Shown: in pieces, positions 29,283-30,356 of the stretch
Position numbering within the stretch: the first letter of the stretch is position 1
Layout of the letters: each line of letters starts with the position of its first letter
Origin: an uncultured Lachnospiraceae bacterium
Lineage (GTDB): Bacteria > Bacillota > Clostridia > Lachnospirales > Lachnospiraceae
Length of the DNA stretch: 31,985 nt
NCBI GenBank assembly: GCA_948762045.1
Contig: CAQBPW010000043.1
Location: forward strand, 1-31,985
Direction: 5' to 3'
Position numbers and translations under genes: made by a program
Notes under the pieces: generated by a model
Database searches by the model: none
What the model saw: only the letters and a program-made list of their open reading frames with translations
Told to the model about the DNA's origin: nothing

Positions 29283-29366
29283 ATAGTAATCTGATTGTTT
29301 ATAGTGAGCCAGAAAGTTATTTATAGTGAGCCGAATGATTGTTTATGGCGATCCGGACGATTGCAT
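29283..29366 (+). repeat. Iterated about 20-22-bp direct repeats (GATTGTTTATAGTGAGCC-like) abutting hairpin H1
   Basis: gattgtttatagtgagcc / ttatttatagtgagcc / gattgtttatggcgatcc / gattgcatc; the same GATTGTTT motif recurs twice in inverted orientation just outside H2 (30275-30300). Confidence 0.7.
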
Positions 29367-29490
29367 CTGCTGGTGATTCCCTGCTGGGGCCGTTTGCACT
29401 AAGGCTTCCTCGCAGCGGACACATAAGGCACGAAAGTACCGTGCCTAAGTGCCGGCGGGAAGCAATACCCCTGCAGGGATTCACCAGCAG
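29367..29490 (+). repeat. Long imperfect hairpin element H1 (18-bp perfect outer stem plus 88-bp quasi-palindromic core)
   Basis: ctgctggtgattccctgc [TGGGGCCGTTTGCACTAAGGCTTCCTCGCAGCGGACACATAAGGCACGAAAGTACCGTGCCTAAGTGCCGGCGGGAAGCAATACCCCT] gcagggattcaccagcag; core is the reverse complement of 30151-30238 with 2 mismatches. Confidence 0.9.
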
Positions 29491-29532
29491 CTACAATCTG
29501 TCTATCTCAACGGAATGTTTGATAGAATCGCT

Positions 29533-29799
29533 TTACCAAGTTGTTTTCTGATCTTTATGTGTATAATGTTTCATCTGTACTAATAAATTGGACAATTTTT
29601 CTTGATAATATTCTTTCTGTTTTTCATCCAGTTTATTTGCATCAAGATATTCCTGAAAAACCTTTTGAAATTCCTTTAAATTTTCTTGTGCTGCGTCTTT
29701 ATAATTATTTGACATATTCATTTGTATCTTTTGTAAAATTATCTCTAACTGAGCATTTTTCTTTGCTTTATTTTTCAGATCTTTAAAAAATAAAAACAC
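29533..29799 (-). CDS. Small Lys/Glu/Gln-rich helical hypothetical protein (GTG start; an internal ATG start would give about 62 aa)
   Basis: 88-aa ORF with AGGAGG 13 nt upstream of GTG; driven by a consensus promoter (see 29909..29937); no overlap with other genes. Confidence 0.45.
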   Translation of the reverse strand: MFLFFKDLKNKAKKNAQLEIILQKIQMNMSNNYKDAAQENLKEFQKVFQEYLDANKLDEKQKEYYQEKLSNLLVQMKHYTHKDQKTTW

Positions 29800-29861
29800 G
29801 GATTTAATTTAACCTCCTAAATCTTTAAATTAAAAACATATCGCCTATTTTATATAAAAAT

Positions 29862-29892
29862 GCGGAGAGAAATCCATATTTTTCCTCTCCGA
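29862..29892 (-). promoter_or_regulatory. 5'-proximal hairpin plus U-tract in the leader of the small ORF (attenuator- or terminator-like)
   Basis: minus strand CGGAGAGG-aaaaatatggattt-CTCTCCG followed by CATTTTTATAT, located just downstream of the predicted TSS. Confidence 0.4.
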
Positions 29893-29908
29893 TCTATTTA
29901 CCATCTCT

Positions 29909-29937
29909 ATTATAAAAGCAGCCTTAAAATTTTTCAA
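29909..29937 (-). promoter_or_regulatory. Perfect-consensus sigma-A promoter (TTGAAA-17-TATAAT) reading into the small ORF
   Basis: minus strand TTGAAAaattttaaggctgctttTATAAT. Confidence 0.6.
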
Positions 29938-30001
29938 CTATATTTTATTATAAATATAATATTCCATGTAAAACATAGGAAAATTTTCACTAAAGCATAA
30001 A

Positions 30002-30110
30002 AATCAAAGGAAATTCGCAATCCGCTTCACTACTCGCTTATAACCTCATAGCCACTATCGCAACTTTTCAATGAAAGTCTAAAGTCTGCACTTCCTTGAT
30101 GAGGTTAAAA
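30002..30110 (+). repeat. Family-2 repeat, intermediate (degenerate long) form
   Basis: aatcaaaggaaattcgcaatccgcttcactactcgcttataacctcat agccactatcgcaact tttcaatgaaagtctaaagtctgcact tccttgatgaggttaaaa. Confidence 0.75.
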
Positions 30111-30124
30111 TAAGGTACAAAACA

Positions 30125-30264
30125 GCTCGCCCTAAGGGATCTTTCTTTGCAGGGGTATTGCTTCCCGCCGGCACTTAGGCACGGTCTTTTCGTGCCTTAT
30201 GTGTCCGCTGCGAGGAAGCCTTAGTGCAAACGGCCCCAGCAAAGAAAGATCCCTTAGGGCGAGC
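30125..30264 (+). repeat. Long imperfect hairpin element H2 (26-bp perfect outer stem plus the same core as H1, inverted)
   Basis: gctcgccctaagggatctttctttgc [AGGGGTATTGCTTCCCGCCGGCACTTAGGCACGGTCTTTTCGTGCCTTATGTGTCCGCTGCGAGGAAGCCTTAGTGCAAACGGCCCCA] gcaaagaaagatcccttagggcgagc. Confidence 0.9.
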
Positions 30265-30356
30265 GTCAGGACTACCCAAAACAATCCCAAACCACTCCAA
30301 ACAATCGAAACTCTACAATAAATGAAAAACTTAGTATAAAATATATTATACCTATT

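Follow-up and report, generated by a model that had tools for sequence, protein, structure and literature searches.

Two long hairpins between gerA and ruvA of an uncultured mouse-gut Lachnospiraceae bacterium are probably copies of a dispersed family of DNA palindromes

The locus between gerA and ruvA

We analyzed a stretch of 31,985 nt (the window; contig CAQBPW010000043.1 of assembly GCA_948762045.1) from an uncultured mouse-gut Lachnospiraceae bacterium, in which two long hairpins, H1 and H2, flank a gene for an 88-aa protein between gerA and ruvA. A sequence-only reading had taken this locus for a composite transposon or invertible cassette of about 1 kb, with ends made of iterons and hairpins and with a promoter and a small open reading frame (ORF) as cargo. 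The hairpins are real, repeated, and unusual, but their interpretation as a cassette, transposon, or invertible segment is largely wrong. We consider it probable that H1 and H2 are two independent members of a family of long DNA palindromes, lineage specific and interspersed in many copies, which resembles the repetitive extragenic palindromic (REP) doublets forming hairpins (REPINs) and the bacterial interspersed mosaic elements (BIMEs).

The H1 element (29353..29517, plus strand) consists of a 5' base CCGGACG (29353-29359), a 5' arm (29360-29384), a core (29385-29472), a 3' arm (29473-29497), and CTGT plus a tail (CTGTCTATCTCAACGGAATG; 29498-29517). H2 (30104..30270) lies on the minus strand; in plus-strand coordinates, its tail and ACAGC occupy 30104-30126, its arms 30127-30150 and 30239-30262, its 88-nt core, to which we assign no strand, 30151..30238, and its end, GCGTCAGG (the reverse complement of CCTGACGC), 30263-30270. 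A repeat search recovered inverted arms of 99 nt at 96% identity (29377-29475 and 30148-30246), and blastn aligned a common core of 94 nt with 2 mismatches in inverted orientation, in agreement with the earlier description. Both predicted folds are very stable (-79.4 kcal/mol, z = -8.3 for H1; -95.9 kcal/mol, z = -10.6 for H2), and none of 200 shuffles per hairpin was as good. The outer stem of H2 is a perfect 26 bp as described, whereas that of H1, described as a perfect 18 bp, is imperfect, with a 25-bp arm containing three mismatches (31 nt at 87%). No Rfam family (Rfam 15) matched the hairpins when the whole window was searched at gathering thresholds, and a search of 29200-30400 at E values up to 10 returned chance-level matches only, with E above 1.

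All of the features reported between the hairpins are present: a promoter, a leader hairpin, the 88-aa ORF, and a family-2 repeat. The small gene (29533..29799, minus strand) is resident rather than mobile cargo. It has a sigma-70-type promoter, TTGAAA-17-TATAAT (29909..29937, minus strand; 11 of 12 positions match), and its 5' leader, as read from the sequence, contains a hairpin followed by a U run (29863..29891, minus strand). The promoter is conserved in two relatives that lack the long hairpins, L054 and L051, and a similar leader hairpin stands at the equivalent place in L051, although not in L054. A homology search with the 88-aa protein returned 314 homologues of about 85 aa, whose named sources point to Lachnospiraceae or Clostridiales, and no Pfam family. 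The family-2 repeat is a short copy closed by AACCTCAT/ATGAGGTT (30000..30112, plus strand); it abuts the H2 tail and is absent in L054 and L051, both of which conserve the ruvA promoter TTGTCA-17-TACAAT (29232..29260, minus strand).

The order gerA, small ORF, ruvA, ruvB, zapA, and U32 peptidase is kept in L054 and in L051-L053, where the small ORF is 77% and 68% identical to that of the window, respectively. At this locus, L054 and L051-L053 have no H hairpin, no GATTGTTT repeats (described below), and no family-2 copy. The two spacers measure 284 and 162 nt in the hairpin-free relatives and 558 and 361 nt in the window; the flanks of L054 and L051 are too diverged from those of the window for empty-site boundaries to be placed. 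As judged from this synteny, the gerA-ORF-ruvA order is ancestral, and so are the 88-aa ORF and its promoter. Because the interior is syntenic in species without hairpins, H1 and H2 are best read as two separate additions around a native gene, which excludes a cassette with the promoter and ORF as cargo. The comparison with relatives thus bears out the idea of an addition in this lineage, since the hairpins are absent there, but not of an added interior, which is present there.

The cassette explanation can appeal to the inverted orientation of H1 and H2 and to the repeats outside them, and RecA could in principle use inverted repeats of 99 nt to invert the interior. However, in addition to being native, the interior (29491-30124, 634 bp) has the same orientation in all 12 assemblies that either cross it or reach into it from a hairpin. 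The interiors of other hairpin pairs are mutually unrelated, and the flanking repeats are not conserved across copies. We therefore regard a composite transposon or invertible cassette as very improbable; what remains of the claimed invertible segment is the 88-nt core of H2, which does occur inverted, as described below. The correction matters, because a mobile or phase-variable promoter cassette beside ruvA would have implied regulation of recombination genes.

Dispersal and design of the H family

When a 20-mer from the core was searched against a species-representative genome collection, it was found at 40 loci. Thirty-six of these lie in one uncultured Lachnospiraceae metagenome-assembled genome (MAG), MGBC128194, which belongs to the same species as the window and carries the window's own H2 flank on its contig 275. 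Two more lie in a second Lachnospiraceae MAG, CBFFYP01, and the other two, in a Verrucomicrobiota MAG and an archaeal MAG, are chance matches. An nhmmer search of the fetched loci (~275 kb) gave 55 H-family matches, about 48 of them in one MAG and a few in a second species, so that the H core, as the sequence-only reading suggested checking, does occur elsewhere in the genome. Every long hairpin in the ~275 kb was an H element, a diverged H variant (at L014 4139 and L035 3662), a family-2 repeat, or a member of a further hairpin type, F1. The 32-kb window holds 7 H or F1 elements, all intergenic, and a 20.6-kb piece of this species holds four long hairpins, whereas 6-kb pieces from three related species have none. 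Many copies mark the end of a contig, and in several cases a contig with ruvA breaks off within H1 or H2, as expected of a repeat that breaks short-read assemblies. The core had no matches in viral contigs, in JGI metagenomes (searched with a two-part degenerate pattern), or in plasmids and phages (blastn), and our literature searches turned up no description of REP-like elements in Lachnospiraceae.

We aligned 42 complete H copies, comprising 38 from MGBC128194, 2 from a second species, and the 2 from the window. Oriented by the core, each copy reads as an sCGGACGC 5' base, a 5' arm of ~25 nt, the core, a 3' arm of ~25 nt, and GCTGT followed by a tail of ~20 nt that resembles TATTCCAACCAGAAC. 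The core itself consists of GCTGGGGCCGTTTGCACTAAGGCTTCCTCGCAGCGGACACATAAGG, a short apical stem-loop, and then CCTAAGTGCCGGCGGGAAGCAATACCCCTGC. In nearly every copy, GACG and CTGT are separated by 138 nt, and the orientation of the core relative to the base is identical in 42 of 42. Base and core are invariant or nearly so; conservation of the base is limited to 6 to 7 nt, and the arms are the most variable part of the element, except that the part of the arm adjoining the core is conserved across copies. We had considered that the arms might be captured target or terminator sequence, but this was ruled out by their loose consensus, which is strongest beside the core.

Close pairs of copies, i.e., copies that share an intergenic region or bracket a single small gene, are convergent in 18 of 18 cases (15 H/H, 2 mixed H/F1, and 1 F1/F1), with the GGACG ends pointing outward. 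Among inverted arrangements, convergence in all 18 would arise by chance with a probability of 2^-18, and the direction of the flanking genes (co-directional, convergent, or divergent) makes no difference to it. Apart from the ~20-nt tails, the pair interiors are unrelated, containing nothing, a GNAT gene, or small hypothetical ORFs; a pair as a single miniature inverted-repeat transposable element (MITE) was ruled out on the same grounds, as the interiors have only the ~20-nt tail in common. Direct pairs could be missing because deletion rapidly removes direct repeats, but this would not account for the lack of divergent pairs. One pair interior, in L036 (2277-2585), encodes a 102-aa Cys/Gly-rich peptide with CGGGC repeats and no Pfam match.

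No enzyme that could mobilize the elements was recognized. The window encodes no transposase or recombinase, as had been noted and as its protein domains confirm, since its large genes have housekeeping Pfam domains or none. Around other copies (~300 kb of genome), an all-against-all comparison of ORFs yielded paralogue groups of flanking genes only, among which no transposase was recognized (the groups are unannotated). The ORFs inside four other pairs encode GNAT and unannotated small proteins, without a match to a transposase family. A transposase or a serine or tyrosine recombinase associated with the H core, which the sequence-only reading proposed to look for, was thus not found near the copies examined.

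The iterons of the cassette model fare differently at the locus and across the family. Three 22-nt tandem units (TGATTGTTTATAGTGAGCCAGA and variants; 29292..29357, plus strand) do run into the 5' base of H1, and G/T-rich short repeats (30275..30306, minus strand) do lie 5' of H2, in a region with a 15-nt indel among strains; copies of GATTGTTT lie at 29293 and 29337 (plus strand) on the outer side of H1 and at 30279 and 30299 (minus strand) on that of H2. No family-wide binding motif was found, however, as the 5' flanks of 53 copies have no common k-mer beyond the CGGACG junction. There are 10 copies of GATTGTTT in the window against 2.6 expected, but by our estimate two G/T-rich flanks of 60 nt share some 8-mer by chance about 30% of the time. 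The G/T-rich 5' flanks of most copies follow the very strong strand skew of the genome; C makes up 14% and G 28% of the coding (minus) strand of the window. Many copies have a tandem duplication that takes in the junction, among them L019 (39 nt, 2 units), L039 (18 nt, 4 units), L045, and L025; these include CGGAC, and their sequences are not conserved between copies. Others include the tail, at L034 (42 nt, 7 units) and L048 (52 nt, 3 units). We read the flanking repeats as tandem duplications of junction sequence that arose locally, promoted by the hairpins, rather than as protein-binding iterons.

Evolution of arms and cores

Although the arms vary, they remain self-complementary. Standard pairs account for 97.4% of the cells in the 42-copy alignment, and two-sided changes are seen in 34 of 53 pairs, with 382 two-sided change cells against 5 one-sided. 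None of 500 shuffles reached the observed pairing values, and no slid register came close. G-U pairs are nearly absent (6 of 2226 cells), as would be expected if both strands had to pair or if one arm were copied from the other, and this points to a palindrome that is kept at the DNA level rather than as an RNA fold. The mismatch types at first looked biased toward one folded strand (26 C-A versus 6 G-T), but about half of the C-A cases fall at one basal position, and the strand call was dropped.

These observations bear on whether the hairpins act as RNA, that is, as structured 3' untranslated or intergenic elements (terminators, insulators, stabilizers, or RNase III substrates) with the core as a protein-binding site. 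The strong structural covariation would be in keeping with such a role, as would the conservation of length and core in place between species. Moreover, unpaired copies almost always lie 23 to 145 nt downstream of a stop codon in sense orientation, and the window has no other terminator-like site after gerA, unlike L054 and L051, which have an ordinary hairpin plus T run there. On the other hand, so few G-U pairs and one-sided changes are unusual for a selected RNA helix, and once the one basal position is set aside, the mismatch types pick no strand. Tails downstream and upstream of genes are equal in T content (5.30 versus 5.29 T in 10 nt), so that a terminator role was ruled against; pairs occur between divergent, convergent, and co-directional genes alike, and Rfam has no match. 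We consider an RNA function unlikely.

Change in place can be followed at a pair of orthologous loci in two species, L026 and L027, whose flanks are ~91% identical. In the right-hand hairpin, the arms differ by five fully compensated pairs plus one wobble, and the core differs at one loop base and at two bases adjoining the 3' arm. The partner hairpin of L026 is mostly deleted in L027, where the remnant CCGAACGTCGGCATC is left. Read together, these differences indicate that copies persist at their sites, that the arms drift at about the neutral rate and yet stay paired, and that copies decay by deletion. Within MGBC128194, the two members of a pair (L046, L041, and L026) frequently have rare core variants in common (a GCGTT apical stem, an AAAGAAC loop, and a TTCGC arm end) although their arms are unrelated. 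This sharing suggests gene conversion between neighboring cores.

Another strain lineage carries the 88-nt H2 core in exactly inverted form between its own arms, with identical arms and flanks. The inverted form is present in L057, L058, L059, L075, and L076 (accession sets ERZ128029xx and ERZ14864783), and the other form is present in the window, L001-L007, L061, and L062. The flipped lineage carries RuvA variant P0128 and is ~98.9% identical to the window strain at the nucleotide level. H1 and two comparable F1 elements are unflipped in it, which makes one flip among four elements compared between lineages that differ by ~1%, and the orientation of the H2 core is a fixed difference between them. 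No F1 flips were seen, although most of the assemblies compared are from the same strain. The H2 flip probably shows that the arms recombine with each other, and such recombination is a possible mechanism for keeping them identical. Because core orientation is uniform in 42 of 42 copies, the comparison argues that flips are rare or selected against.

A programmed flip-flop, in which a dedicated recombinase inverts the 88-nt cores at the inner ends of the arms (TTCTYTGC) and makes the copies small invertible elements across the genome, would account for the exact inversion of H2 and for the conservation of the arm beside the core. It fits poorly with the uniform orientation of the aligned copies, with the single flip among four elements, and with the fixation of that flip within each lineage, where no mixture is seen. 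None of 9 promoter-like sites in a scan of the locus falls inside a hairpin core, no recombinase gene was recognized in the window or near other copies, and a single homologous crossover between arms of 26 to 29 bp explains the flip equally well. A programmed flip-flop is therefore quite unlikely.

We thus favor a family of DNA palindromes whose copies would share one module, with a conserved base, two self-pairing arms of ~25 nt, and a nearly invariant, asymmetric core of ~90 nt on top. Two such copies would have been added on either side of the resident transcription unit between gerA and ruvA. When one arm changes, the other may be rewritten to match, probably through recombination or conversion between the arms or through template switching on an extruded hairpin, and an occasional crossover between arms would flip the core, as in H2. 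We infer that the family spread as a non-autonomous element, its hairpin or cruciform being recognized at the base and core by an enzyme encoded elsewhere; once in place, the hairpins may promote tandem duplications beside themselves.

Several points weigh against this explanation. No mobilizing enzyme, target-site duplication, or fresh insertion was seen, and the sole presence/absence difference between close species, that of L026 and L027, is a deletion with a remnant. If neutral crossover between arms were frequent, both core orientations should be common, and yet the copies in the MAG are all the same. The preservation of length and core across species suggests selection on each copy, possibly for a host function. 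Finally, nothing that we tested explains why all 18 close pairs are convergent.

The modules may instead form a new class of element, in which hundreds of fixed-length palindromes per genome are read as cruciforms or hairpins by a dedicated protein and serve a host function rather than being selfish DNA. Such a class would have interchangeable cores (H, diverged H, and F1) on a common base-and-arm design; its arms would be kept self-complementary by conversion within the element while they drift, its cores could flip, and its members would pair strictly tail to tail within an intergenic region. We hold this only as a speculation that is rather unlikely as it stands. If it is true, the host function might be, for example, to mark operon boundaries or to organize the chromosome.

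Overall, REP-like palindromes occur about once per 5 kb in an uncultured gut Lachnospiraceae bacterium. They provide an unusually clean natural case of a DNA palindrome that evolves by paired changes without wobble intermediates, as well as a natural case of an in-place flip between strains. They also break short-read assemblies, can imitate RNA covariation in screens for structured RNAs, and pair in a strictly convergent manner.

Other repeats in the window and comparison with known systems

Five F1 hairpins of ~240 nt lie in the window, at 1-147 (cut by the window edge), 4546-4795, 9184-9430, 15087-15324, and 19321-19568. They have a GGACGC base, variable arms of 26 to 32 bp, and a GCTGT end as in H1 and H2, but their core differs from the H core and contains TTTTTTGCCATTC..GAATGGCAAAAAA; Rfam has no match for them. 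Tandem arrays of 66 nt (2.6 units) and 34 nt (3.3 units) lie beside F1 hairpins at 4358-4526 and 19573-19685 and are almost free of G on the plus strand. Some intergenic stretches, e.g., 19165-19320 and 19569-19712, contain only 1 to 3% C on the sense strand.

Family-2 repeats are found at 3847-3897, 6379-6540, 15371-15419, 30000-30112, and 31934-31985, as well as in the MAG (L012 2176-2252 and L046 4071-4147). The full form (6379-6540) is a multistem palindrome closed by AACCTCAT/ATGAGGTT, with three inner hairpins. A smaller hairpin repeat, ATCGAGTAGGGAA...TCCCTACTCG, occurs at about 4062-4130, 6596-6650, and 15510-15600; a CTGCTGACATCGTTCC-like sequence follows it in two of the three copies, and a shorter form follows in the third. 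With up to 2 mismatches allowed, the 13-mer of this repeat is found four times in the window, against 0.9 expected; three of these matches are the copies just given.

Among the neighboring genes, an 812-aa ORF (6654-9092, minus strand) has major-vault-protein shoulder and repeat domains (PF11978 at 1.4e-22; PF17795), a vault-type domain set that is unusual in a Lachnospiraceae housekeeping neighborhood. A thiamine pyrophosphate (TPP) riboswitch (4187-4297, minus strand) lies ~370 nt upstream of the first thiamine gene that it precedes, as measured to the start codon; this gene is of the hydroxyethylthiazole kinase family (2994-3815), and copies of family-2 and of the CGAGTAGG hairpin stand between the two (region 3816-4297). 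Beyond the window end, upstream of gerA, strains differ by a 2.9-kb indel (L001 4437-7301 versus L075 7129-7286) containing a gene for an N6_N4 DNA methyltransferase and another of 293 aa; the indel is probably a restriction-modification module.

REPs are ~20 to 25 nt long, often contain GTAG, and, together with their partner transposases (RAYTs), have been described mainly in Proteobacteria. REPINs, which are mobilized by RAYT, resemble the H family in being high-copy, extragenic, and organized as one long hairpin, and they too are regarded as non-autonomous and as remaining at their sites. As far as the account in PMC3116915 describes them, REPINs also have conserved ends, a paired region of fixed length but variable sequence, and compensatory changes; in the GI family treated there, 71 bp lie between two invariant 16-mers. 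REPINs are shorter than the H and F1 elements (140 to 250 nt) and have REP sequences as their ends, whereas the H ends are an imperfect inverted motif of 6 to 7 nt (GGACGC/GCTGTC), in which GGACGC and GCTGTC plus tail contain no sub-hairpin and no GTAG. The invariant asymmetric apical core of H has no counterpart in REPINs, and no RAYT (a Y1 HUH transposase) was found in ~300 kb around H copies. The intergenic regions of the window are also reminiscent of BIMEs, which are described in PMC2817692 as intergenic mosaics of palindromic units in alternating orientation, in that at least four repeat families are mixed in them (H, F1, family-2, and the CGAGTAGGGAA hairpin). However, H units are several times longer than REPs and unrelated to them in sequence, nearby units are always tail to tail, and no IHF- or gyrase-type linker motifs were identified in the H family.

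MITEs, like H elements, are short, non-coding, multicopy, intergenic, and hairpin folding, and can interfere with neighboring transcription and disrupt short-read assemblies. Correia, ERIC, RUP, and bcr1 are examples of bacterial MITEs with a hairpin fold. MITEs have conserved terminal inverted repeats and target-site duplications, whereas in H variation is greatest in the long paired arms, no duplication is definable, and no parent insertion sequence is known. In contrast to a composite transposon, the native and syntenic interior between H1 and H2 does not move with the ends, and whereas Tn7- or Mu-like ends each have conserved transposase-binding repeats, the flanks of 53 H-family copies have no such repeats. 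An intrinsic terminator has its U tract directly after the stem, whereas H tails average 5.3 T in 10 nt irrespective of the gene side on which they lie.

The attC sites of integrons, which are recognized as folded single strands, share with H an imperfect palindrome (60 to 140 nt) with recurrent unpaired or mismatched bases and the presence of small ORFs between sites. They have conserved outer core sites, a variable center, and a direct array beside intI, whereas the center of H is conserved, its copies are dispersed, and its pairs are inverted. Invertons resemble H2 in having inverted repeats around a segment whose orientation differs among strains, but H2 has no invertase gene nearby, no promoter-like site in the core, and a lineage-fixed orientation, and H arm sequences differ at every copy. 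The H2 flip has parallels in the hairpin-associated small inversions described for chloroplast genomes, in which a segment between short inverted arms flips while the stem is unchanged. The flip and flop forms of parvovirus terminal repeats likewise differ by inversion of a segment between inverted arms, with the stem unchanged. These cases concern isolated sites or replication termini, whereas the H elements form a dispersed family with a conserved core.

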